NCBI GenBank assembly: GCA_963828165.1
Contig: CAWHDR010000001.1
Location: 1,568,001 to 1,632,000 of the forward strand
Direction of reading: 5' to 3'
DNA: 64,000 nt
From: an uncultured Chloroflexia bacterium
Lineage (GTDB): Bacteria > Chloroflexota > Limnocylindria > Limnocylindrales > CSP1-4
Below are positions 34,299-45,773 of this stretch, piece after piece. The position numbers were made by a program, and so were the translations under genes. Each line of letters begins with the position of its first letter. Position 1 is the first letter of the stretch. The notes under the pieces were generated by a model that made no database searches, was not told where the DNA came from, and saw only the letters and a list, made by a program, of their open reading frames with translations.

Positions 34299-36530
34299 TT
34301 GACGTTCGTCCGTCGCCGCCACGCCACGAATCTCCTCGTATTCCTGCTGCTGGCGACGTCCGCGATTCCGGTCGCAGCCGCGAATCCGATCACTGACCCC
34401 GCGCCCACCGCGCCGGCCCTCGGTGCCGCCCGCGTCGCTCCCGCCGAGCAGCCCTCGAGCCCGGGGGACGACGCCGGTCTCCGCTCGAGCATCCACTGGG
34501 AAGAGATCCAGAAGCACGCGAACGACAAGATCGATTTCGCGCCGGGCGGCCGGGTCACGGTGCCGTTCCGGCCACGTGCACACGATCGATGGAGCGTCGG
34601 CGGCGTCCTTCCCCGCGCCCTCCCCGAGGGTCGGCTCTCGGGTCGTCAGCTCCGCGACGCTCTGAAGCCGACGACCGCCGCCGATCCTGCGTCAACCCCG
34701 GCGCCGGAGGCCGAGCCGGCACCCGCGGTCGAGCCGACGCCGACGGTCGCGCCGACCGAAGCGCCGACTGAAGCGCCCACGGAAGCGCCCACCGACCCGA
34801 GCCTGGACCCATCGACGGAGCCGACGGCAACCCCGGCGGCCACCGACACGCCCGTCGACCAGCCAGTCGTCGACGAGGGCGAGGCCATTCCGGCGGAGGG
34901 CGTCTCCTGGTCGCCCGACCACGCAGCCGAGAGTCTCACGGAGCCCGCCGCGGCCATCTCCCCGAGCGGCCTGAAGCGCGAAGTCTTCGGCTTCCTGCCG
35001 TACTGGGAAGTCAGCGACAGCTCGACCACGATCGACTACTCGAAGGTCTCGACGATCGCCTACTTCGGCATCGGCGCGGCCGCCGACGGCACGTTCGAGA
35101 AGACCGGCCCGGGCTGGAGTGGCTGGACGAGCTCGGCCCTGACCAACGTCATCAACAAGGCCCATCAGAACAAGACGCGCGTCGTGTTGACGGTGCAGAG
35201 CTTCGCCTGGTCGTCCGGCGGCTCCACGAAGCAAAAGGCGCTCCTCGGCAGCAGCACCGCCCGTGCCAGGCTCGCCAAGACCATCGCCATCGCGGTCCGT
35301 GACCGCGGCGCCGATGGCGTGAACCTCGACTTCGAGCCCCTTGCCGCCGGCTACGCCGACGAATTCGTCGCGCTCGTGAGGCGCGTTCGGACGGAGCTCA
35401 ACGCCGTCGCCAAGGGCTACCAGCTGACCTTCGACACGACCGGTTACATCGGCAACTACCCGCTCGAGGCCGCCACCGCCGCGGGCGGCGCCGATGCCAT
35501 CTTCATCATGGGCTACGACTACCGCTCGTCGGGCTCGAGCCCCGTTGGCTCGATCGCCCCGATGGGTGGAGCCGCCTACGACATCGTCGACACGGTCAAG
35601 GCCTACACGGCGCGCGTGCCGGCATCCAAGCTGATCCTCGGCGTGCCCTACTACGGCCGCGCCTGGTCCACGGACACCGACAAGCTGAACGCCAAGAACA
35701 CCAGCGGCACGAAGTACGGCTCGTCGACAACGGTGATCTACGACAGCGGCATCGTGGTCCTGCAGGAACACGGCAAACGCCGCGATAACGTCGAAGACGT
35801 GGCCTGGACGGCCTACCGCCGCGAGAACTGTTCGAGCACGTACGGCTGCGTGACGTCGTGGCGGCAGCTGTACATGGACGATGCCTATTCGCTACGCGTC
35901 AAGTACGACCTCGTGAATAACTACGGTCTGCGCGGGGCGGGGATCTGGGCGCTGGGCTACGACAACGCTCGCCCCGAGCTGTGGGCCGCGATCAAGGATA
36001 AGTTCGTGGCCACGACGCCTTTCACGGACGTCAACGGCTTCGCCACCGAGATCGAGTGGCTGTACAAGTCCGGCATCACGGCCGGTTGCGAACCGACCCT
36101 GTTCTGCCCCAAGGGCAAGGTCACGCGCGCCCAGATGGCGATGTTCCTGGACCGCGCGCTGGACCTGCCGGCGGCGACGGTCGACTACTTCGACGACGAC
36201 GACGGCAAGACCGGCGAAGGCAGCATCAACGCCCTGGCCAGGGCCAAGATCACGGGCGGCTGCGGGCCGCGCCGCTTCTGCCCGAGCGCCAGTGTCACGC
36301 GCGCCCAGATGGCGATGTTCCTGGACCGCGCCCTGGCCCTGCCCAACGCCACGACCGACTACTTCGACGACGACGACGGCCGGACCGGCGAAGGCAGCAT
36401 CAACGCCCTCGCCCTGTCCAAGATCACCGGTGGCTGCGGCGAACGGCGCTACTGCCCGACGAGCTCGGTCACGCGCGAGCAGATGGCCGCCTTCCTGTAC
36501 CGCGCCCACCTGCAGGGCCGCCTCGACTGA
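34299..36530 (+). CDS. Glycoside hydrolase family 18 protein with SLH-like repeats
   Basis: Signal peptide, Pro/Thr linker, DGVNLDFE, IMGYD, GVPYYGR, GIWALG; three TRAQMA/TREQMA repeats. Start codon uncertain. Confidence 0.87.
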   Translation: MTFVRRRHATNLLVFLLLATSAIPVAAANPITDPAPTAPALGAARVAPAEQPSSPGDDAGLRSSIHWEEIQKHANDKIDFAPGGRVTVPFRPRAHDRWSVGGVLPRALPEGRLSGRQLRDALKPTTAADPASTPAPEAEPAPAVEPTPTVAPTEAPTEAPTEAPTDPSLDPSTEPTATPAATDTPVDQPVVDEGEAIPAEGVSWSPDHAAESLTEPAAAISPSGLKREVFGFLPYWEVSDSSTTIDYSKVSTIAYFGIGAAADGTFEKTGPGWSGWTSSALTNVINKAHQNKTRVVLTVQSFAWSSGGSTKQKALLGSSTARARLAKTIAIAVRDRGADGVNLDFEPLAAGYADEFVALVRRVRTELNAVAKGYQLTFDTTGYIGNYPLEAATAAGGADAIFIMGYDYRSSGSSPVGSIAPMGGAAYDIVDTVKAYTARVPASKLILGVPYYGRAWSTDTDKLNAKNTSGTKYGSSTTVIYDSGIVVLQEHGKRRDNVEDVAWTAYRRENCSSTYGCVTSWRQLYMDDAYSLRVKYDLVNNYGLRGAGIWALGYDNARPELWAAIKDKFVATTPFTDVNGFATEIEWLYKSGITAGCEPTLFCPKGKVTRAQMAMFLDRALDLPAATVDYFDDDDGKTGEGSINALARAKITGGCGPRRFCPSASVTRAQMAMFLDRALALPNATTDYFDDDDGRTGEGSINALALSKITGGCGERRYCPTSSVTREQMAAFLYRAHLQGRLD

Positions 36531-36553
36531 GGAGCGCGGCTACACTGCCGTCG

Positions 36554-37204
36554 ATGATCGACCCCGCCGCGCGTGTCCATGCGTCCGCCGAGCTCGAGGA
36601 CGGCGTCACTGTCGGGGCCGGCAGCGCGATCTGGCAGCGGGCGCAGGTCCGAACCGGCGCGCGCATCGGTAGCGAGTGCGTGATCGGGCGCGACGCGTTC
36701 ATCGACCAGGGCGTCGAGATCGGCGACCGCGTGAAGATCCAGAACGGAGCGCTCGTCTACCACGGCGTCACGGTCGCCGACGGGGTGTTCATCGGCCCTG
36801 GCGCGATCCTCACCAACGACCGTTACCCGCGGTCGATCACCGCCGAGGGCGAGCTGGCCCGGGCCGACGACTGGGAGGTCATCCCGATCCGCCTCGAGCA
36901 CGGCAGCTCGATCGGCGCGGGCGCCATCGTCGTCGCCGGGTGTGACGTCGGGCCGTTCGCGATGGTGGGCGCCGGAGCCGTCGTGACGCGCACGGTCCCC
37001 GGGCACGCGCTGGTTGCCGGGAGCCCCGCGAAGCGGATCGGCTGGGTCTGTGCCTGTGGCGACCGGCTCATGGACTCCGAGGGGCATCCCGCGCCGGCGG
37101 AGATCGGGCGCTACACGACGGACCCGGAGCTCACGTGCGCGCGCTGCGGCCGCCACTACGCCTACGAACGCACGGGCGACACGCTCCGCGAGGCGACCGC
37201 GTGA
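36554..37204 (+). CDS. Hexapeptide-repeat N-acetyltransferase (WbpD-like)
   Basis: VKIQN, VFIGP...TND.YPR, AGSPAKRIGWVCACG with C-terminal CxxC. Confidence 0.88.
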   Translation: MIDPAARVHASAELEDGVTVGAGSAIWQRAQVRTGARIGSECVIGRDAFIDQGVEIGDRVKIQNGALVYHGVTVADGVFIGPGAILTNDRYPRSITAEGELARADDWEVIPIRLEHGSSIGAGAIVVAGCDVGPFAMVGAGAVVTRTVPGHALVAGSPAKRIGWVCACGDRLMDSEGHPAPAEIGRYTTDPELTCARCGRHYAYERTGDTLREATA

Positions 37205-38301
37205 TCCCGGTCGCTCGTCCCGACATCGATGACGCCGAGATCGCCGCCGTCACCGAGGTCCTGCGCAGCGGGATGCTGGCCGGAGGCCGCCGGGTCGCGG
37301 AGCTGGAGGAACGATGGGCGGCGTTCATCGGCGTCCGCCACGCGATCGCGGTGAGCAACGGGACCGTTGCCGAGATGTGCATCTTCGCGGGCATGGACCT
37401 GGAGCCCGGCGACGAGGTCATCACCGTCGGCCACACCTTCAATGCGACGGTGTCATCGATCCTGTACGCGGGTGCCACGCCGGTGTTCGTGGACATCGAC
37501 CCCGAGACCTACGACATCGACCCGGACCGGGTGGCCGCGGCCATCACGCCCCGGACGAAGGCCATCTGCCCGGTCCACCTGTTCGGCCTGCCGGCCGACA
37601 TGGACCCGCTCCTGGAGCTCGCCGACCGCCACGGCCTCGCCATCGTCGAGGACGCCTGCCAGGCCCACGGCGCCGAATACCGCGGGCGGCGGGTCGGAAG
37701 CTTCGGGCACGGCGCGTTCAGCCTGTACGGCACCAAGAACATGACGACGGGCGAGGGCGGTCTCATCACGACCGATGACGACGCCCTGGCCGACTGGATC
37801 CGGCTGTACCGCAACCAGGGCATGCGCGAGCGCTACCGCCACGACATCCTGGGCTACAACTTCCGCCTGACCGATGTCGCGGCCGCGATCGGCCTGTGCC
37901 AGCTCGACAAGCTCGAGCGGAACACCGCCCGTCGCCAGGCGATCGCGAAGCGCTACGACGAGGCCCTGGCGGACCTGCCGGTCGTCGTCCCGAGCGTGCC
38001 CGCCGACCGGACGCACGTCTACCACCAGTACACCCTCGACGTCGGGCCCGCACGCGACGCGATCGTGGCCGACCTCGCCGCGGCCGGAGTCTCGACCGGG
38101 ATCTACTACCCGATCCCCGTCCATCGCCAGCCGTACGTGCTGGCGCTCGGCATCCGCGCCGACCTGCCGGTCACGGACCGCGCCGCTGCGCGCAGCCTCT
38201 CGCTGCCGATGTTCCCGGGCCTCACCGGCGACGACCAGACGACCGTGATCGAGGCGGTCCGTGCCGTCGTCGGGCGGCACGCGGCCATCGCCGAACGATG
38301 A
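37201..38301 (+). CDS. DegT/DnrJ/EryC1/StrS aminotransferase (WbpE-like)
   Basis: PVHLFG, EDACQAHGA, FSLYGTKNMTTGEGG, GYNFRL. Confidence 0.92.
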   Translation: MIPVARPDIDDAEIAAVTEVLRSGMLAGGRRVAELEERWAAFIGVRHAIAVSNGTVAEMCIFAGMDLEPGDEVITVGHTFNATVSSILYAGATPVFVDIDPETYDIDPDRVAAAITPRTKAICPVHLFGLPADMDPLLELADRHGLAIVEDACQAHGAEYRGRRVGSFGHGAFSLYGTKNMTTGEGGLITTDDDALADWIRLYRNQGMRERYRHDILGYNFRLTDVAAAIGLCQLDKLERNTARRQAIAKRYDEALADLPVVVPSVPADRTHVYHQYTLDVGPARDAIVADLAAAGVSTGIYYPIPVHRQPYVLALGIRADLPVTDRAAARSLSLPMFPGLTGDDQTTVIEAVRAVVGRHAAIAER

Positions 38302-39335
38302 GCGGCTGGGAGCCCATCGGCGAGCGCCCGGCGCGAGTCGGGCTGATCGGTCTTGGGGCGATGGGGCGGAATCACCTGCGGCTGCTGAGCGCCCGCGAGG
38401 ACGTCGAGCTCGTGGCGATCTCGGATCCGCTCCCCGAGGCGCTGGAGGCGGCACGCGGGACGACCGATGCCAAGGTCTACGTCGAGCCGCGGGACATGCT
38501 CGGCAACGACGCCCTTGATGCCGTCGTCATCGCCTCGCCGACGACGACCCACCTTGGGCTCGGGCTCGCCGCCGTCGAGCGTGGGGTCGCCGCGCTCATC
38601 GAGAAGCCGCTTGCGGCGACCCCGCAGGAGGCCGACGGCCTGGTCATGGCCTCGGGCGAGACCGGCGTGCCGATCCAGGTCGGCCATGTCGAGCAATTCA
38701 ACCCGGCGGTGCTGGAGCTTGGCCGCCTCCTGGATGACGGCTGGCTCTCGACGGTCTACGCCATCACGAGCCGTCGCGCCGGCCCGTTCCCGGCGCGCAT
38801 CCGCGACGTGGGGGTGACCATCGATCTCGCGACCCACGACGTCGACATCCTGTCGTTCGTCGCGGCCGAGCGGCCGACCCGCGTCTCGGCCGAGACCGCC
38901 CAGCGCGTCCACCAGGACCACGAGGATCTGCTGTTCGGACTCCTGTCGTTTCCCTCGGGTTCGGTCGGGATGCTCCACGTCGACTGGCTGACGCCGGCCA
39001 AGCGCCGGACGCTGACCGTGGTCGGCGAGGAGGGCATGTTCGAGCTCGATTACCTCAGCCAGCGGCTGACCTTCACGCGCTCGACCGATACGACGAACCC
39101 GCACCTGATCCGCGGATATGCCCCGACGTTCGAGGGCGAATCGGTCGAGCTGCCACTTGCGAGCGGGGAGCCGCTGGCCGCCGAGCTGGACGCGTTCTTC
39201 ACCGTCGTTCGAGAGGGCGGTCGCCCGGTCGTCAACGTGGAGGACGGGCGCTGGGCGGTGGTCGTCGCGGATGCCCTGCTGCGCGCGGCGCGCGAGCGCC
39301 GGACCGTCGAGCTCGACGAGGTCCTGGCAACGTGA
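38298..39335 (+). CDS. Gfo/Idh/MocA oxidoreductase (WbpB-like)
   Basis: GLGAMGRNH, EKP, VGHVEQFNP, DLATHDVD. Confidence 0.88.
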   Translation: MSGWEPIGERPARVGLIGLGAMGRNHLRLLSAREDVELVAISDPLPEALEAARGTTDAKVYVEPRDMLGNDALDAVVIASPTTTHLGLGLAAVERGVAALIEKPLAATPQEADGLVMASGETGVPIQVGHVEQFNPAVLELGRLLDDGWLSTVYAITSRRAGPFPARIRDVGVTIDLATHDVDILSFVAAERPTRVSAETAQRVHQDHEDLLFGLLSFPSGSVGMLHVDWLTPAKRRTLTVVGEEGMFELDYLSQRLTFTRSTDTTNPHLIRGYAPTFEGESVELPLASGEPLAAELDAFFTVVREGGRPVVNVEDGRWAVVVADALLRAARERRTVELDEVLAT

Positions 39336-40745
39336 CGATCACCGACCGGCCGTCCAGCACCGCTGACCTCACCGGCGGCTCAATCACGTCCGAGCCGAAC
39401 CCGTGCCGCCACCCGTTCGCGCGGCCCGTGCGGCCGTGGCGCGGTGAACCCGGAACGGCAGGGATCGTGGCGGTGGTCGGGGCGGGGAAGATGGGCCTGC
39501 CGCTCGCCGCGCAATTCGCGTCGCACGGGTGGGACGTCATCGCGGTCGACATCGACGAGGCGGTCGTGGCCGCGATCAACGAGGGTCGCTCGCATGTCGA
39601 CGAGGAGCCCGGCCTCGCGGAGCTCGTGGCGACCGCTCACGGCGACGGCATGCTGCGTGCGACGACGGACGGCGCGGCGGCCGCGCGCGAGGCCGACGTC
39701 GTCGTGCTCATCGTGCCGGTGATGCTGGACGCGGAGTCGCGGCCGGACTACCGCCACATGGATGCCGCCACGGACTCGATCGTGCCGGGCATCCATGCCG
39801 GGTCGCTCGTGATCTACGAGACGACGCTCCCCGTCGGGGACACGCGCGGGCGCTACGCTCCGCGCCTGGAGGCGGCCAGCGGGCTGCGCGCCGACGTCGA
39901 CGGCGACAACGGGTTCCTCTTGGCCTTCTCACCGGAGCGGCTGTACAGCGGTGCCGCACTTCGCAATCTGGCGACCTACCCAAAACTTGTCGGCGGCGTT
40001 GGGCCTGCTTCTCGGGACCGCGCCGCCGCGTTCTACGACAGCGTGCTCGATGCCGAGATCGTGGCCATGTCGTCGGCCGAGGCGGCCGAGTTCTCGAAGC
40101 TTGCCGACACGACGTACCGCGACGTGAACATCGCGCTCGCCAACGAGTTCGCGAACTACGCCGACCGGATCGGCGTCGACCTGACCGAGGTGATCGCCGC
40201 GGCCAACAGCCAGCCCTACAGCCACATCCACCAGCCGGGGATCGGTGTCGGTGGCCACTGCATCCCGGTCTACCCGCACTTCCTGCTCGATCGAGCGCCC
40301 GAGCTGTCGCTCGTGGCCCGAGCCCGCGAAGTCAACGACGGCCAGGTCGACGTGGCGATCGAGGCGCTGAAGGCCGAGCTGGGTTCGCTCGACGGTGTCG
40401 GGGTGCTCGTGCTCGGGCTGACGTACCGCCACGGCGTCAAGGAGCTGGCCTACTCACGGGCGCTGCCCCTGATCGAGCAGCTGCGGGCGGCGGGCGCCCA
40501 GGTGCTCGCCTACGACCCCTTGCTCACCGAAGACGAGATCCGCCAAACCGGCGCCGAACCGTGGACTTGGGGAACGCCGGCACCGGGAGTCCGCGCCGTG
40601 GTCACGCAGACAGCCGACCCGAACTGGCAGCAAATTGGATGCGGGCTGGTTCCCGGAGCTACGTGTCGTCCTGGACGGCCGCAATAGCCTCGGCGGCCTC
40701 GCCCTGCCGGATGGCGTGACCCGCCGCGGTATCGGGAGCTCGTAG
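39332..40745 (+). CDS. UDP-N-acetylhexosamine 6-dehydrogenase (WbpA/WecC-like; +1 frameshift near 40635)
   Basis: VGAGKMGLP, FSPERL, YRDVNIALANE, GVGGHCIP. Corrected C-terminus ...VVLDGRNS...GIGSS ends at TAG 40745. Confidence 0.88.
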
Positions 40746-40760
40746 ACGCTCGAGCTGATC

Positions 40761-40785
40761 GTCCGGCGAGATCACGCATTGCGAC
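40761..40785 (+). repeat. Cassette site 0 (right half only) GTCCGGCGAGATCACGCATTGCGAC
   Basis: CACGCATTGCGA is identical to the right half of the last site. Confidence 0.6.
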
Positions 40786-40893
40786 CAACATGCCTTGTAC
40801 CGTGCAGCGTGCGGATTCGCCCTTTCACCGGTTGACGCCAATTGGTCATCGACCCATGCTCAGGCGCAGGATTCCGCCGAGGGAAGTCAACCG

Positions 40894-41010
40894 ATGGTCA
40901 ATGACAGCGGCGCTTTCGCCGTGCCCGTCTACGAGATCGTCCTGGCTGTGCTCGTGGTGGGGCTGGCACTCGCAATTCTTCGAGTCCTGCGACGCCGGGG
41001 AAGGCGATGA
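40894..41010 (+). CDS. Small single-TM protein (38 aa), cassette 1
   Basis: MVNDSGAFAVPVYEIVLAVLVVGLALAILRVLRRRGRR; GAGGGA RBS-like sequence. Confidence 0.5.
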   Translation: MVNDSGAFAVPVYEIVLAVLVVGLALAILRVLRRRGRR

Positions 41011-41101
41011 CCACGACTCCGAGCCGGATGGACTGACAGCCGGCTGCCGTCTCGGGATTCAAACTGAACGCTACCGACACCCTGTGCTCGCTCGACGTCT
41101 A

Positions 41102-41126
41102 GTGTCATTGACGCACGGTTTGCGAC
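41102..41126 (+). repeat. Cassette site 1 GTGTCATTGACGCACGGTTTGCGAC
   Basis: Matches the consensus. Confidence 0.75.
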
Positions 41127-41156
41127 CACTGGTTGATCGGCTGGGGGTGAGCCGCC

Positions 41157-41954
41157 TCACAGCCGTTCGTTAATAGAGCGTACGAACCGTGCGGCCGCAG
41201 ATCGAGTTGGCGCGTCATGGAAGCCGATCTTGCCTCCGGACCGACGACACCCCAGCGCCCTGTCCAGCAGCCACGTGTGTTGGGGCGCGTGTGCCCGGAG
41301 CCACGCCGCGCCCTCCTGCTTCGAGCACGGTTGGCCCGTCCGGATCGTGCAAATCGCTCGGCATTCTGAAAGCACGGCATACGCGAGCGATCCAGGCGAG
41401 AGCGTGTCAAGGTCCTGGGTCGCGAGCCAGCGGGCATAGGAGGCTACGGCTCCGAGGTATTCGGCGTGGCTAATCGGCGGCACCACGTCGGCCGCCGTCC
41501 TGCCCGCCAGGGTGACGCCCGTCTCCCGGACGAGATACCAGTTCTGCAACCAGTCACTCACCGGCCCAGATAGGTGAAACGGCTCCCCTGGGCTGATGAC
41601 TGCCAGATCGGCCTCCGAGGCACGGAAGCCGCGAAGGTCGGCTGATCCGATGTAAACAATCTCCAGCCTGTTCTCCCACGCTGCATGCCGCCTCACGAAC
41701 TCCCGATGGACGTGGTCGAGGGCCTCGAAGTCGAGCGCGGTCGCGGGGTGCGCGGTGACGGCTACGAGATCGATGTCGCTCACGCCGGGGTCGAACCCAC
41801 CCGACACGGCCGATCCATACGCATACAGGCCGACAAGCTCGTTGCCCAGTGCATCAGTCAGGGCATCGGAGAGCACCGCGACGGGGACGTCGGGGTGGAT
41901 CGCTCCAAGCATCGATGCAGCGTCGGCCACGAACCGGACACGGTCAAGCGCCAT
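41157..41954 (-). CDS. Aminoglycoside nucleotidyltransferase-like protein (ANT(3'')/ANT(9)-type NTase plus DUF4111-like C-terminus), cassette 2
   Basis: LVGLYAYGSAVSGGF..SDIDL; GVTLAG; YAVLSECR...CSKQEGAAW. Start uncertain. Confidence 0.78.
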   Translation of the reverse strand: MALDRVRFVADAASMLGAIHPDVPVAVLSDALTDALGNELVGLYAYGSAVSGGFDPGVSDIDLVAVTAHPATALDFEALDHVHREFVRRHAAWENRLEIVYIGSADLRGFRASEADLAVISPGEPFHLSGPVSDWLQNWYLVRETGVTLAGRTAADVVPPISHAEYLGAVASYARWLATQDLDTLSPGSLAYAVLSECRAICTIRTGQPCSKQEGAAWLRAHAPQHTWLLDRALGCRRSGGKIGFHDAPTRSAAARFVRSINERL

Positions 41955-42094
41955 AGCCTGCGACCGCGTCGCGTGAGAGGGGGCGTCTGATGTGCCGACG
42001 ACGAATGAGCGAGACGGGCCGGTGGGCGTGTCCCCCACATCCTGAAGTGAAGGCCGGGACATCGAGCATGGGATCGCCCTCGTGATTCCATCGG

Positions 42095-42119
42095 GTGACA
42101 TTCCCGGACACTTTGCGAC
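42095..42119 (+). repeat. Cassette site 2 GTGACATTCCCGGACACTTTGCGAC
   Basis: Best match to the consensus; imperfect dyad GTnnCA-N13-TGnnAC. Confidence 0.85.
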
Positions 42120-42144
42120 GCTGGCGGCACGTACCATCGCGACG

Positions 42145-42447
42145 ATGGAATGGCTTCCGATCCTCGAGTATCGCGAGTTCTACGACTTGCCTCGCCTGAT
42201 TCTGGTGGAGACTGATGACCGCTTTCTCCTGCTTGACTGCCCGTTCGAGGACGGTTTCGACGATTACGCGGCCGACTTCTTCGTCTACCAGTTGGAGTCC
42301 GACCCTCGCCTGAGTTTCGGAGCCGATTGGAGTGGGCTTCCGGCGACCGGCAGACTTCTCGGGCAGGTGTCAGTCAATTCGATCACGTTCGATTCCACTC
42401 GACGTGAGGCGCTCAAATCGCGCGAGCTGGCGACATTGCTCAGGTGA
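42145..42447 (+). CDS. Small acidic hypothetical protein, cassette 3
   Basis: MEWLPILEYREFYDLPRLILV...LLDCPFEDGFDDY; TACCAT -10 seven nt upstream; stop codon lies inside the next site. Confidence 0.72.
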   Translation: MEWLPILEYREFYDLPRLILVETDDRFLLLDCPFEDGFDDYAADFFVYQLESDPRLSFGADWSGLPATGRLLGQVSVNSITFDSTRREALKSRELATLLR

Positions 42448-42468
42448 CATTGGCGGACACTCACTGAC
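42444..42468 (+). repeat. Cassette site 3 GTGACATTGGCGGACACTCACTGAC
   Basis: Left arm and core match; right arm degenerate. Confidence 0.75.
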
Positions 42469-42581
42469 GCTTGCGTGCCCTGCATCGGAAGGTGTCGACG
42501 ATCGCGACCCGATGAGTCAGGCCCGATTCGGACCGGCCGAGCGCGCCGAGGCGTGGACTCCACAACGGCAGGGCCCGTGGC

Positions 42582-42995
42582 TCAGGTCGTGGCGAACAGT
42601 TCCCCGGTGTATGAGCGGCTGACCCAGAATCCGAGCGCTTCGAGGGCGGCCTCCCGCTCGTCGAGCTCTGCAAGGGTGTCCGCTGCCGGGAACAGGACTC
42701 CGTAGATCCCCAAGGCGTCGACGTCGGTCTCGATCCGTCCTCCGAGCGGTTCGATGGCGCGTTCGAGGTCCGTGCGAGATTTGCCGCCGGAAGGCGCGCC
42801 GGTCATGACGATGAGCGTGCCTCGGGCCATGCAATCGCGGTCGGAATCGCGCATGAACTCTGGCGCCGGACATTCCGCGTCGACCACACGGTGAGGCCAG
42901 CTCGTCGGGCCGAGAGTCACCAAGCTGACGGAAAGGACCACGAGCACCGCTAGGAGCAACGGCGACCTGCCACCGTGCGCGGCCTGCGGAGGCAT
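42582..42995 (-). CDS. Membrane-anchored or exported hypothetical protein, cassette 4
   Basis: Hydrophobic N-terminal helix, Cys pair, small alpha/beta domain. Start uncertain. Confidence 0.55.
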   Translation of the reverse strand: MPPQAAHGGRSPLLLAVLVVLSVSLVTLGPTSWPHRVVDAECPAPEFMRDSDRDCMARGTLIVMTGAPSGGKSRTDLERAIEPLGGRIETDVDALGIYGVLFPAADTLAELDEREAALEALGFWVSRSYTGELFATT

Positions 42996-43154
42996 CCTGT
43001 CTGACGGTCTTCTCGCGTCCGGGAGCGTCTCCGTCCTCCAATCTCGGAGCGCTGCCGTTGAGCATGACTCAAGCAGCCCCCACATGGAACGACCCAACCG
43101 CGTTGTCGGGTACGAGCAGGCACGCGTACACACTAGTTTCTCCATGTTCGTCAG

Positions 43155-43179
43155 GTGACATTTCCGGACGCTTTGCGAT
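43155..43179 (+). repeat. Cassette site 4 GTGACATTTCCGGACGCTTTGCGAT
   Basis: Matches the consensus. Confidence 0.85.
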
Positions 43180-43264
43180 GCAGCCCGCGTCGTGACTCCT
43201 CGCTGCGACCGGGGCGTATGCTGCCCGGACCGAGAAGGCTTGGGCGTGGCTAACGGGAGGCGAG

Positions 43265-43561
43265 ATGGCCGAGTCGCTTACGGCGTCGCTGAACCGATGG
43301 CGAACCGGCATGCACCCCCGTGCGACTGAGATGCGGATCACCTCCCTTGGTCGCGTTCACCCTCAGCTAGGTGAAGCGCTGCGCCTGGAGATGACCCCCG
43401 CCGGTCCCGGCGGAGAGGACAGCATTCACCTGCAGTACTACATCGCGACGGACCTGGGACCTTGGGCGCTCTGGCTCTCGTGCGCACGAGAGGATGTTGC
43501 CGACTGCGAGGCTGCTCTTCGGGAGCTCACTCCTCCGTTCGCTGAGGAGCGCCAGACCTAG
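43265..43561 (+). CDS. Hypothetical protein, cassette 5
   Basis: GGAGG RBS; 98 aa; stop 10 nt before the last site. Confidence 0.62.
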   Translation: MAESLTASLNRWRTGMHPRATEMRITSLGRVHPQLGEALRLEMTPAGPGGEDSIHLQYYIATDLGPWALWLSCAREDVADCEAALRELTPPFAEERQT

Positions 43562-43571
43562 CCCGCAGCGA

Positions 43572-43596
43572 GTGACATTCCCGCACGCATTGCGAG
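43572..43596 (+). repeat. Cassette site 5 GTGACATTCCCGCACGCATTGCGAG
   Basis: Matches the consensus. Confidence 0.85.
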
Positions 43597-43677
43597 ATCG
43601 CCAGCCTGTAGCCCAAAGGTGATGCCGATAGCGGCACGGGGCCACGCGGAGCCCGCTCGCGTCAGTACGCTACACGC

Positions 43678-44556
43678 ATGGAGTCCGAGGAAGCCTGGCT
43701 GACCGAGACGCTGTACGACGACGTTCGGATGTCGATCAAGGTGGATCGGGTGCTGTTCGACAGCCAGACCGGGCATCAGCATCTCGTCGTCGCGGAAAGC
43801 GAGCGATTCGGGCGGATGTTCACGCTCGATGGCGTCACGCAGCTGACGATGGCCGACGAGTTCGTCTACCACGAGATGCTGGCGCACGTGCCGATTCTTG
43901 CCCACGGCGCGGCGCGCGACATCGGGATCGTCGGGGGTGGTGATGGCGGCCTCGTCGAGGAGGTCCTCAAGCATTCGTCGGTCGAGCACGTGACGATCGC
44001 CGAGCTCGACGCCGGCGTCATCGACTTCGCCCGAACCTACCTCCCGGACCTCAGCCACGGGGCGTTCGACGATCCTCGCGTGGAGATCGTCCTTGGTGAC
44101 GGGGCCGACTTCGTCGCGACGACCGACCAGCGGTTCGACGCCCTCGTGGTCGACTCGACCGACCCGATCGGTCCGGGCGCGGCCCTGTTCAGCCTCGACT
44201 TCTACACGAACTGCAAGCGCGTGCTGCGGCCGGGCGGCGTGCTCGTGACCCAGAACGGCGTCCCGTTCTTCCAGCCCGAGGAGCTCGAGTCATCGATGCG
44301 CTTCTTCGGCGGTCTGTTCGCCGACGCGACCTGCTACCTCGGGGTGGTGCCGACCTACGTCGGCGGGTTCATGGCCTTCGGTTGGGGCACGGATGACGTC
44401 GCGCTCCGGACCGTGCCGGTCGACATGATCCGGGAGCGGTTCGATGCGGCGGGCCTCGACACCCGTTACTACACGCCCGAGGTCCACCGGGCGAGCTTCG
44501 CCTTGCCGAGGTTCATCGGCGACATCGTGGAGCGAGGCCGCGGGTTCGGCGCCTGA
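43678..44556 (+). CDS. speE: Spermidine synthase (polyamine aminopropyltransferase)
   Basis: LDGVTQ...DEFVYHEMLAH, GGGDGG, VDSTDPIGPG, VPTY.GG, YYTPEVHRASF. Confidence 0.95.
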   Translation: MESEEAWLTETLYDDVRMSIKVDRVLFDSQTGHQHLVVAESERFGRMFTLDGVTQLTMADEFVYHEMLAHVPILAHGAARDIGIVGGGDGGLVEEVLKHSSVEHVTIAELDAGVIDFARTYLPDLSHGAFDDPRVEIVLGDGADFVATTDQRFDALVVDSTDPIGPGAALFSLDFYTNCKRVLRPGGVLVTQNGVPFFQPEELESSMRFFGGLFADATCYLGVVPTYVGGFMAFGWGTDDVALRTVPVDMIRERFDAAGLDTRYYTPEVHRASFALPRFIGDIVERGRGFGA

Positions 44557-45300
44557 TCAGCGTCGGCTGAGCCAGTCGTCCAGACGCGTCGGGGCGATGC
44601 GGGCGTCCGGTCCCGGGGTCAGGGTCCGATCGTCGAGGTGGGCGCCGAAATACGGCACGGTGTCGTCGGTGACGACCGGACGCGGGTCGCCGGCCGCGGA
44701 CAGGACCCGCCGAACCAGCTCGTCCAACCCGATCGCCTCGGGGCCAGCCACCTCAACCGTGCCGTCGATCGGCGATCCCTCGACGACGTCCGCCACGGCG
44801 ACGGCCAGGTCGCTGACCGCGATGGGCTGGAGGTTGGCCGACGGGAGTCGCACGGTGCCGTCGGTCGCGGCGGAGTCGGCGATCCCGCCGAGGAACTCGA
44901 AGAACTGGGTGGCCCGGATGATGGTGTACGGGACGCCGCCGTCCGCCACGAGGCGTTCCTGCGCGACCTTGGCCCGCATGTAGCCGCTGTCGGGCGCGCG
45001 ATCCGCACCGACGATCGACAGCACCACGTGGTGCTTGGTGCCCGCCTCGCGCTCGGCCGCCAGCAGGGTGCCGGTCGAGGTCTGGAAGAACTCGAGCACC
45101 GCGGCCTCCTCGAACGATGGCGCGTTGGAGACGTCGACGACGATCTCCGCGCCCGCCAGGCCTTCGGCCACGCCAGCACCGGAGATGGTGTCAAAGCCTG
45201 TGCTCGGTGCCGCCGCCACCGCTTCGTGCCCTCGGCGTTCTAGTTCGGCCACCACCTGCGAGCCGAGTCGCCCGGTCCCACCCACGACCACGACCTTCAT
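44557..45300 (-). CDS. NAD(P)H-binding atypical SDR (NmrA-like)
   Basis: MKVVVVGGTGRLG, LSIVG, YMRAK, RATQFFEF. Confidence 0.87.
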   Translation of the reverse strand: MKVVVVGGTGRLGSQVVAELERRGHEAVAAAPSTGFDTISGAGVAEGLAGAEIVVDVSNAPSFEEAAVLEFFQTSTGTLLAAEREAGTKHHVVLSIVGADRAPDSGYMRAKVAQERLVADGGVPYTIIRATQFFEFLGGIADSAATDGTVRLPSANLQPIAVSDLAVAVADVVEGSPIDGTVEVAGPEAIGLDELVRRVLSAAGDPRPVVTDDTVPYFGAHLDDRTLTPGPDARIAPTRLDDWLSRR

Positions 45301-45347
45301 TCGCGTTCCCCTCTGCTTCGCCGGGCTCATCGAGGGGAGAATGCTAT

Positions 45348-45773
45348 ATGTCCCGACGCAGGAAGGCTCTGACCGCGATCGTAGCGACGGGCGTGTTGGC
45401 CCTCGCGCTTGTGGCCATCAGGGTGGCGCCGCTGTTCACCGGTCCGGCCCTGCCCGCCGGCGCCGAGCGGCTGCACATCACCACGGCCGCCCCAAACCTG
45501 AACATGGGTTGCGCGACCGCCTTGCTTTCCCCAGTCCGTGTTTCGACTGACGGCGACTCGCTGACGCTTGTTGTCGTCGAATCGGGCGAGCCAGTGCGTG
45601 TCGTCTGGCCGGCCGGCTTCGGCGCGTGGCGGATCGACGGCAAGGCGGTGGTCGCCGATCCGTGGGGCAGCGTCGTCGGCAGAGAGGGGAACGTCCTCGA
45701 CGGTTTCGGTGGAGGCTACGGCTCGGACGATGTCTTCCATATCTGCCCGTTCGGCATCGTGACCGAGCGCTGA
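45348..45773 (+). CDS. Exported hypothetical protein
   Basis: N-terminal TM/signal, Cys pair, VVWPAGF. Confidence 0.6.
   Translation: MSRRRKALTAIVATGVLALALVAIRVAPLFTGPALPAGAERLHITTAAPNLNMGCATALLSPVRVSTDGDSLTLVVVESGEPVRVVWPAGFGAWRIDGKAVVADPWGSVVGREGNVLDGFGGGYGSDDVFHICPFGIVTER

Follow-up and report, generated by a model that had tools for sequence, protein, structure and literature searches.

The DNA analysed here is a stretch of 64,000 nucleotides (the window) from an uncultured Chloroflexia bacterium, positions 1,568,001 to 1,632,000 of contig CAWHDR010000001.1. Between two housekeeping genes it contains a row of five small gene cassettes, each of which ends in a copy of the same directly repeated site. 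On the basis of sequence comparison, it is rather probable that this row is one of five chromosomal gene-cassette arrays that are built on the attachment sites of a large serine recombinase (LSR) and driven by that enzyme. The reading is carried by the recurrence of whole cassettes beside different neighbours, by a break in homology at a fixed position of the site, by a long and a short form of the site with the geometry of LSR half-sites, and by an LSR-encoding element that begins at such a site.

The cassette array of the window

A first-pass annotation of the window had described five full copies of a 25-nucleotide motif and a half site at 40761. The five copies (25-mer starts 41102, 42095, 42444, 43155 and 43572) were recovered on the forward strand with 0 mismatches to the degenerate pattern. 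This loose pattern alone is weak, since five matches with two mismatches allowed were also found in 3 of 100 shuffled sequences. The half site is likewise real, but it proved to be a distinct short site of 19 nt (40766-40784) that heads the array. The features of the array are the following:

40766-40784 (C1:1608766), forward: array head, short site GCGAGATCACGCATTGCGA, 19 nt (short-site pattern)
40785-41125, forward: cassette 1, 341 bp, weak small open reading frame (ORF) at 40795-41010 (coding score -3.8)
41099-41125, forward: long site 1 (positions -3 to 24), 3' end of cassette 1 (pattern and position weight matrix, PWM)
41126-42118, reverse: cassette 2, 993 bp, nucleotidyltransferase with an AadA_C-like domain, ORF 41157-41957 (Pfam PF13427, 1.9e-08, and PF01909)
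42092-42118, forward: long site 2 (pattern and PWM)
42119-42467, forward: cassette 3, 349 bp, ORF of 100 aa at 42145-42447 (homologues site-to-site in other genomes)
42441-42467, forward: long site 3, variant ..CTCACTGA that moves with the cassette-3 family (cassette-family comparison)
42468-43178, reverse: cassette 4 ('Y'), 711 bp, ORF of up to 187 aa at 42582-43145 with a predicted N-terminal membrane segment
43152-43178, forward: long site 4 (pattern and PWM)
43179-43595, forward: cassette 5, 417 bp, ORF of 98 aa at 43265-43561
43569-43595, forward: long site 5, the last of the array (pattern and PWM)
43596-43627, forward: tail after the last crossover, a right (B'-type) arm or the remnant of a cassette start

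The earlier description of one ORF per interval, oriented +,-,+,-,+, is roughly right, except that cassette 1 offers only its weak small ORF.

Arrays in the host genome and its relatives

The host genome (G000) comprises 3.31 Mb in 6 contigs at 70% G+C and is 87.7% complete. The genome-wide PWM scan that the first-pass annotation had suggested, with a matrix built from the five window sites, returned 53 matches of at least 14 bits, and 46 of these cluster in five arrays, each confined to one strand. All 44 matches of at least 20 bits lie inside the five clusters:

C1:1609102-1611572: array W, in the window, 5 sites
C1:585583-591158: array A2, at the lysA-like/S4-domain locus, 10-12 sites
C1:965241-971758: array A3, 12-13 sites
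C1:1778062-1778743: array A4, 2 sites
C5:13384-22612: array C5, at the PHP-YmdB locus, the largest, 17-20 sites

Sites were found in 12 of the 41 genomes of the same genus (32 sites in G000, 9 in G042, 4 in G001 and one or two in each of the others), and a reversed-pattern control gave 0 matches in the 41 genomes. With the PWM, 253 of 254 sites across 103 loci share one strand per locus. The 149 site-to-site intervals at these loci have a median length of 578 bp (quartiles 392-738), and the best ORF is co-oriented with the sites in 79 of them, opposite in 20 and unclear in 50. The arrays are flanked by ordinary housekeeping genes, and no neighbour family recurs beside more than 5 of about 100 loci. 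An ORF resembling an extracytoplasmic function (ECF)-type sigma factor (267 aa) lies less than 8 kb from sites in L071, L083, L084, L091 and L111, with a possible partner ORF in three of them; this probably reflects synteny among relatives.

Beyond the genus, at least 115 stretches matched the exact pattern when prokaryotes were scanned with one genome for each species, and among the matches listed most are contigs of metagenome-assembled genomes (MAGs) titled Chloroflexi, Chloroflexia, Chloroflexota or Candidatus Limnocylindrales. The metagenome scan returned at least 120 stretches. One-strand arrays with this motif are present in hundreds of public contigs, in a group of bacteria from soil and fresh water, and occupy more than one place in the chromosome. 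In viral contigs a single exact match was found, so that there is no sign of a phage-borne motif. Good sites are also present on contigs titled Verrucomicrobiia (2), Candidatus Eisenbacteria (one array with as many as 6) and Myxococcales (L008, L057, L063 and L026); at about 67-69% G+C, these may be mis-binned Chloroflexota or cases of transfer between phyla.

Modular cassettes and locus turnover

Whole cassettes of the window recur elsewhere. Cassette 4 was found from site to site in A3 (87% identity) and C5 (85%) of the same genome and in locus L046 (88.6%), with a fragment in A4. A copy of cassette 5 with 94.6% identity lies, again from site to site, at another chromosomal locus in L046. 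Homologues of cassette 3 are present in L046, L047, L038, L074 and L109, with different neighbours in each.

The loci themselves differ among relatives as well. At the locus of the window the array is enclosed by two genes:

39332-40687, forward: UDP-glucose/GDP-mannose dehydrogenase family gene (ugd), left flank, housekeeping, outside the array (Pfam PF03721, PF00984 and PF03720)
43678-44556, forward: spermidine synthase gene speE, right flank, outside the array (Pfam PF01564)

In genome G042 the ugd-family gene and speE are syntenic (84% and 89% identity) and stand about 30 bp apart, the segment 40746-43627 of the window being missing. On the ugd side, the 84% identity extends over window positions 36000-40735 and homology ends at about 40735-40745; it resumes at about 43628. 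In L109 the same two genes enclose a short head after ugd, a cassette-3 homologue in first place and a single long site. At the lysA-like/S4 locus (A2), three genomes share an identical head up to ...GCGAC, after which the sequences are unrelated; at the tail of this locus, unrelated sequence joins the common arm and flank. The PHP-YmdB locus (C5) has just two sites in L100, and the locus in G000 that corresponds to a six-site array of G042 consists of 472 bp without sites.

Judged from these comparisons, the cassettes are modular and appear to be swapped between arrays and genomes, and the loci turn over among relatives. The central proposal of the first-pass annotation, a cassette array with a directly repeated site served by a recombinase in trans, is supported by this recurrence and turnover and by the breakpoints described below. 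None of the observations that it had named as contrary was made: the motif does not lie upstream of core genes, no match to insertion-sequence ends was seen, and the order of the five genes is not fixed.

The long site and its breakpoint

The long left arm of 27-28 nt is the 3' end of a cassette. It reads TCrG-GTGWCATT-ssCGn-ACRC-nnn-GC and is followed by GA at the crossover. In the logo of 232 non-redundant sites, information is high from position -3 to position 24 (TCrG GTGWCATT ssCGn ACRC tkw GCGA). Position 24 still holds 2.49 bits, whereas position 25 has no more than 0.09. A cassette unit extends from position 25 of one site through position 24 of the next, and homology breaks sharply between these two positions.

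The break was located with pairs of homologous cassettes that have a non-homologous neighbour on one side. In 19 such pairs with different upstream neighbours, identity stays at background up to position 24, and positions 25-28 reach 0.63-0.84 against a background of 0.25-0.35. In 22 pairs with different downstream neighbours, which like the former are not independent of each other, identity lies above background from -3 to 20 and at the background level from position 25. The breakpoints fall between about positions 20 and 25 in every informative family. Variants of the site behave in the same manner: those at positions 1-24 go with the upstream cassette and those at position 25 with the downstream one. 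Five of six members of the cassette-3 family are terminated by ..CTGACTGA or ..CTCACTGA, and both copies of cassette 5 (window and L046) have T at site position 25. The comparison across relatives that had been proposed earlier revealed differing cassettes with breakpoints inside the site, at 24/25.

A 301-bp cassette of A3 (L003, G000:C1 968077-969993) is a chimera of the first 47 nt of a 1158-bp cassette and the last 251 nt of a 353-bp cassette, at 97.5% identity. As this chimera is not joined from site to site, it was left out of the breakpoint analysis.

The first-pass annotation had read the 25-mer as an imperfect dyad and likened it to dif and other tyrosine-recombinase core sites. This dyad is not the relevant symmetry, whose centre is found at positions 23-24 on the right-hand border of the motif. 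No hairpin was predicted in ten single-strand folds of the five window sites (z-scores -1.2 to +1.5). The 11-6-11 dyad is absent from the logo, and two loose patterns for a dif-like core gave nothing convincing over the genome; the geometry fits LSR half-sites instead. The statement that attC features are lacking holds, given the absent hairpin and the conservation of the site in 232 copies. A search of 39000-45500 against Rfam returned nothing at E up to 1. The motif was also considered as a sigma-54 promoter and rejected by eye, because its GG position (9-10) is variable.

The short head site and the half-site geometry

In LSR attachment sites, the motif for the zinc-ribbon domain (ZD) lies 5 bp nearer the central dinucleotide in attB half-sites than in attP half-sites (bp 11-19 versus 16-24), and attB sites are about 10 bp shorter than attP sites, as described in PMC3783163. 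The array sites come in two lengths with the same offset. When the GA dinucleotide (positions 23-24) is taken as the origin, the outer motif of the long sites, GTGWCATT, falls on half-site positions 16-23, and that of the short sites on 11/12-18. Under the LSR rule, the long arm would therefore be of the P type (attP) and the short arm of the B type (attB).

The short arm reads GyGAsrT-n-ACRC-nnn-GC plus GA. It equals a long site minus five bases between the outer motif and ACRC, which brings the outer motif closer to the crossover by 5 bp. The pattern gave six matches in G000 and none in the reversed control, three of these six being the heads of W, A3 and A4. A2 and C5 begin with close variants instead, the former with one mismatch and the latter with two additional bases. 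Across 256 loci, 14 of 15 short-pattern matches precede the first long site of the array on the same strand by 267-673 bp, the length of one cassette, two of the 14 being one region of G042 counted twice. The remaining match is on the opposite strand, and none of the 15 falls within an array or after it. The independent result on the short sites is their position at array heads alone.

Traces of a right arm can be seen at the cassette starts. In the right flanks of the 232 sites, the reverse-complemented inner motif peaks at position 25 (-12.7 against about -18), and the reverse-complemented outer motif peaks at position 34, the B'-type place (-19.9 against about -26). T38, C39 and C41 are kept even where a -10 hexamer in phase is absent (186 sites).

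Solitary sites of the short type were found off the arrays of G000 at C1:2278475 (+), C1:2853691 (+) and C1:7497 (-). In the first of these (GGGAGAT...GGGA, then ...TCTCCC), the outer motif recurs as a mirror image on the right side, roughly at the distance of the B type, and this site could be an unoccupied attB. A search for empty attB sites with a generic palindrome was discarded as non-specific: at gap 22 it gave four matches against none in the control, and these miss the inner motif.

The LSR-Rep element

The array that lies beside a recombinase gene, which the first-pass annotation had proposed to look for, is the largest one: the only PF00239 gene of G000 sits just upstream of C5. Its homologues belong to a conserved unit of 2.3-2.8 kb that consists of the LSR gene and a convergent gene for a rolling-circle Rep (PF23343). 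The LSR has about 465 aa, and in intact copies the Resolvase, Recombinase and Zn_ribbon_recom domains score above the cut-off. Near Rep the element carries an inverted repeat, GTCAAGGG...CCCTTGAC. Six full copies were found, namely one each in G000, G057, G060 and the metagenome locus L156 and two in G058. In five of the six, the order is LSR, Rep, about 0.75-2.3 kb and then at least one site in the orientation of the LSR; the sixth stops at a contig end. A partial seventh copy (L211), with the start of Rep and a site, shows the same relation.

The unit stands directly behind sites of the short type, and its left end adjoins or coincides with the GA in the right half of a site-like sequence. 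The sequences directly before the unit are:

G000: ..GGACGCTTTGC
G060: ..ACGCTGAGCGA
G057: ..CCCTGACTGA
L156: GTGAGATCACGCTGTCCG

Both copies in G058 adjoin degenerate sites only. Within the first 23 bases of the unit, GYGT is found at half-site positions 7-10 and AATGTCAT or AATGTTCC at positions 16-23. With this placement, the left end of the unit can be read as an inverted arm of the long type (P'-type). In the intact copies of G058 and L156, the LSR gene has TAATGT 12 nt past the crossover and an ATG 6-7 nt further on.

The LSR falls outside the Ccr recombinases, as it scores 52.4 bits against the CcrB model (cut-off 900), 45.5 against CcrA (700) and 32.7 against CcrC (900). In G000 the start region of the LSR gene is off by one base relative to intact homologues. 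The window itself holds no recombinase, and no integron integrase was found in the genome, in line with the earlier remark that no integrase lies in the window.

Proposed cassette cycle

The geometry of the arms suggests the following junction types; both these and the assignment of enzyme domains to motifs are inferred from that geometry:

Head and first cassette: B-O-B', attB-like
Internal junctions: P-O-B', attR-like
Head followed by an LSR-Rep unit: B-O-P', attL

These junctions lead to a tentative proposal, for which the term 'serine integron' is used here and which we regard as possible but still short of probable. The LSR-Rep element, as the small, replicating and autonomous partner of the arrays, would shuttle leaderless single-gene cassettes between attB-headed arrays by choosing among stacked attR-like junctions, and the site would also gate transcription. 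In this cycle, the element would integrate at an array head by attP x attB. For excision, the attL of the element would pair either with the attR that belongs to the element or with an attR-like junction anywhere downstream. Pairing further down would load the intervening cassettes onto the circle. Once the circle has integrated elsewhere, these cassettes would stay behind at the new head if excision took place at a nearer junction, and departure of the element would leave an array without recombinase, as in the window. The cycle would use canonical LSR reactions only. It would account for the one-strand arrays, the short head arm, the fixed break and the weak B' arms at cassette starts, as well as for the recombinase-less arrays and the movement of cassettes between arrays.

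A number of points weigh against the LSR and the cycle built on it. The breakpoint pairs are drawn from few cassette families, and the short pattern was written from few examples, so that its length was imposed. The right arms of the cassettes are weakly conserved and overlap the -10 signal at T38, which makes the B' reading soft. An LSR homologue is present in 2 of the 41 genomes of the genus, against 12 of 41 with sites. Among the five other array-bearing genomes it is present in three and was not found in G059, with arrays of 13 and 6 sites, or in G061; these absences are soft, since all genomes are MAGs and incomplete. The LSR gene of G000 is divided between two frames (L001, on G000:C5, 5211-6308 and 6215-6631) and may be a pseudogene or the product of a long-read indel or assembly error. 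The proposal also needs a directionality factor for attL x attR, as canonical LSRs do, and the cycle does not explain the first gain of the long arm or the origin of new heads. At the window locus G042 is without even the head site. Finally, the circular cassette junctions that the first-pass annotation had suggested looking for were not seen: among 120 metagenome loci there were no circular contigs and no terminal overlaps, and no recombination joints at sites were found in the contigs from four sequencing runs, which are short and of low depth. Among the runs listed as carrying the sequence there are none of RNA, and the DNA runs carry it in small shares (0.13, 0.12 and 0.07). Three joints listed fall in flanking genes and have short sides of 21-22 letters. 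The sole hint comes from run X2, in which two contigs (depth 3-3.6) match cassette 2 at 41122-42118 only and have unlike flanks.

The same rarity of the LSR favours an alternative in which a different recombinase, of the Xer type of the host or another, acts in trans on the arrays and the LSR-Rep element is merely a passenger on the same site. The large arrays of G059 and G061 are without an LSR match, and G000 encodes three PF00589 tyrosine recombinases, two of them XerC/D-like and the third weak. As no neighbour family recurs beside the arrays, any enzyme must act in trans. None of the three PF00589 genes lies near an array in this 87.7% complete genome. Their scores against the integron integrase model TIGR02249 (112, 115 and 33 bits), however, stay well below its cut-off of 265. 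The site also speaks against a Xer-type enzyme, as it has neither the 11-6-11 dyad nor a hairpin and its conservation stops at the crossover, unlike that of a Xer/dif core. The 5-bp difference between short and long sites and the mirrored arms are predictions specific to an LSR, and both were found, the mirrored arms of the cassette starts in weak form. Another recombinase is for these reasons considered unlikely.

Transcription signals and other explanations

The cassette sites stand in a fixed phase with promoter elements. In 46 of 231 sites the hexamer TAnnnT begins at a distance of 11-13 nt downstream of position 25 (3, 12 and 31 at 11, 12 and 13 nt), compared with about one site at each other offset. 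In 29 of these 46, an ATG (23) or GTG (6) that opens at least 40 codons follows 5-9 nt past the hexamer. Such starts look common in this genome: among 2,194 long ORFs, TAnnnT lies 6 and 7 nt before candidate starts in 146 and 114 cases against about 15-20 at other spacings, an enrichment of about eight-fold, and leaderless genes are therefore normal in G000. The 260 housekeeping leaderless promoters of G000 show no -35 consensus, which means that the site is not a general promoter part. It overlies the -35 region of many cassette genes, and a protein bound to it could gate them. Two candidate -35 elements inside the site were rejected on their spacers to the -10 hexamer, TTGCGA with only 13 nt and GTGACA with 31 nt.

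The first-pass annotation had argued from the placement of the sites between genes of every orientation that they are not operators. As an argument against any transcriptional role this went too far in view of the 46 in-phase hexamers.

A regulatory origin of the arrays has to be weighed accordingly. In T4-like phages, the conserved promoter motifs called PeSL flank small ORFans, recombine and give rise to mini-circles, as described in PMC2839356. By this precedent, the motif would mainly be regulatory for small accessory genes, and shuffling would occur by homologous or microhomology recombination between its copies. The -10 hexamers and leaderless starts at a fixed distance agree with this, as does the position of the motif where a -35 region would be. 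However, about 80% of the sites have no in-phase -10 hexamer, 20 of the 99 confident cassette ORFs are reversed, and the housekeeping leaderless promoters have no -35 consensus. A stem-loop is absent. Within the 28-nt motif, breakpoints are confined to about positions 20-25, too narrow a range for homologous shuffling of the PeSL type. The head variant shorter by 5 bp and the LSR element placed exactly at the breakpoint would also be left unexplained. This explanation is thus somewhat less likely again than a second recombinase.

Conservation on one side of a break is typical of the nick sites of HUH enzymes. The Rep protein (PF23343) is always paired with the LSR beside arrays, and it could be supposed that this HUH Rep nicks the edge of the motif and moves cassettes by a rolling-circle or relaxase-like strand transfer between tandem sites. 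The conservation at the array sites is indeed one-sided. Yet the site forms no hairpin, and the inverted repeat of the element near Rep is a likelier origin for such an enzyme. The 5-bp rule and the mirrored arms would be meaningless for it, and Rep is as rare as the LSR. Transfer by Rep is therefore very improbable. A plain operator or regulon motif in front of ordinary, immobile tandem genes, to which the fixed phase with -10 hexamers would point, is hardly credible at all, as identical cassettes stand beside different neighbours in different arrays and genomes, the array is missing in one relative and the loci turn over.

Relation to known systems

Integrons are the textbook case of the stockpiling and shuffling of single genes, and they depend on one family of tyrosine integrases and on the folded attC site. 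To our knowledge, they are essentially unknown in Chloroflexota. The arrays described here share with integrons the one-strand order of mostly single, small and uncharacterised genes, the site at the 3' end of each cassette and a distinct head site. There are also arrays without an adjacent integrase, similar to clusters of attC sites lacking integron-integrases (CALINs), and cassettes common to several arrays. In contrast to integrons, IntI is absent, and the site lacks the attC hairpin, being a duplex of 28 nt with conserved sequence. Several arrays are found per genome, each between housekeeping genes. A common Pc promoter is missing, many cassettes having their own -10 hexamer and leaderless start, and the enzyme proposed here, a serine recombinase, is carried by a replicon-like element of its own.

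A closer parallel in enzyme class is offered by LSR prophages and by the composite islands of the staphylococcal cassette chromosome (SCC), in which Ccr LSRs insert units in tandem at one chromosomal attB, direct repeats bound the units, and units without recombinase are moved in trans. Tandem units between direct repeats are common to both, as would be insertion driven by an LSR and the movement in trans of units without recombinase, and one array head overlaps the 3' end of a housekeeping gene (lysA-like). However, the present units have a median of 578 bp and one gene rather than kilobases, occupy five loci per genome, stand in promoter phase and occur in Chloroflexota, and the LSR falls far below the Ccr cut-offs.

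With canonical LSR integration of phages or plasmids (A118/LI, phiC31, Bxb1), in which attP x attB yields attL and attR, the arrays share the outer motif at 16-23 in P-type and 11/12-18 in B-type arms, the inner motif beside the central dinucleotide and the element junction B-O-P'. They differ in that tens of P-type arms are stacked in the chromosome. We know of no description, for A118/LI, phiC31 or Bxb1, of alternative attR sites being used to load and unload cargo, and none was found in the literature searched. The pdif modules of Acinetobacter plasmids are bounded by XerC/XerD sites with an 11-6-11 core and in alternating orientation. Here, too, short sites bracket small gene modules and the recombinase would act in trans, but the sites are direct (253 of 254) and not Xer-like. 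The PeSL cassettes (PMC2839356) resemble the arrays in the short conserved motif between small ORFans, in its promoter phase and in its role as a boundary of shuffling; cellular chromosomes, the missing stem-loop, the fixed breakpoint, the head variant and the associated site-specific recombinase set the present arrays apart.

No description of such arrays was found in the literature searched, most subscription journals lying outside the search. PMC7771536 concerns tRNA-targeted islands and is not relevant to the arrays.

The arrays appear to reach the same outcome as integrons through a different class of enzyme and with plain duplex sites. There is a substantial chance that the mechanism of loading and unloading is a new way of capturing genes. 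If this is confirmed, gene-cassette capture would have evolved more than once, and a capture platform with attP/attB logic, independent of integrons, would extend across a class of Chloroflexota. It would also provide a natural case of one LSR with many stacked sites, which is relevant to genome engineering with serine integrases, and it would open a large pool of uncharacterised cassette genes in abundant soil and freshwater Chloroflexota. The proposal yields a testable rule, in that a 5-bp shift of the motif should turn a cassette site into a head site.

Cassette content

Most cassette products have no match in Pfam or NCBIfam. The matches that were obtained are to AadA_C/NTP_transf_2, DUF4279, DUF7674, DUF6869 and Glyoxalase_3. 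Several products start, as judged by eye, in the manner of signal peptides or lipoproteins, and look-ups of cassette proteins in the Atlas gave only 'hypothetical' clusters and a weak TIMP lead. Some co-oriented ORFs have their stop codon in the site: the TGA at site positions 2-4 serves as the stop in 16 of 79 cases, and in 7 of 79 the stop falls at positions 18-20.

In the window, cassette 1 has no Pfam match; it may encode a membrane peptide of 38 aa from the ATG at 40894, and TACCGT is found 12 nt past the head site. The protein of cassette 2 reaches at best 37 bits against the aminoglycoside nucleotidyltransferase (ANT) models of NCBIfam, whose cut-off is 193. It is thus a distant ANT relative only, and no claim of resistance is made. 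Cassette 3 combines a -10 hexamer TACCAT (42132-42137) with a leaderless ATG at 42145 and a TGA stop inside the next site, and its protein matches neither Pfam nor NCBIfam.

The last cassette of C5 encodes a secreted-looking protein of 230 aa (L001, 16923-17615 and 18903-19529 region), and a Peptidase_M43 gene lies close by. The nearest Atlas clusters of this protein include a TIMP-like family (14% of members), which is a lead only.

Genes beside the window array

The ugd ORF was called to 40687, yet its homology to G042 reaches a TAG in another frame at 40743-40745, which points to a frameshift at the 3' end or to an assembly error. The gene upstream of ugd (window 36065-36513) contains internal repeats of ~260-380 bp with 70-78% identity and gives multiple cross-hits between the window, G042 and other parts of the genome. 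On the other side of the array, speE has its own -10 hexamer TACGCT, followed after 6 nt by a leaderless ATG (~43663-43680), and the gene is syntenic in G042, G024 and L109.

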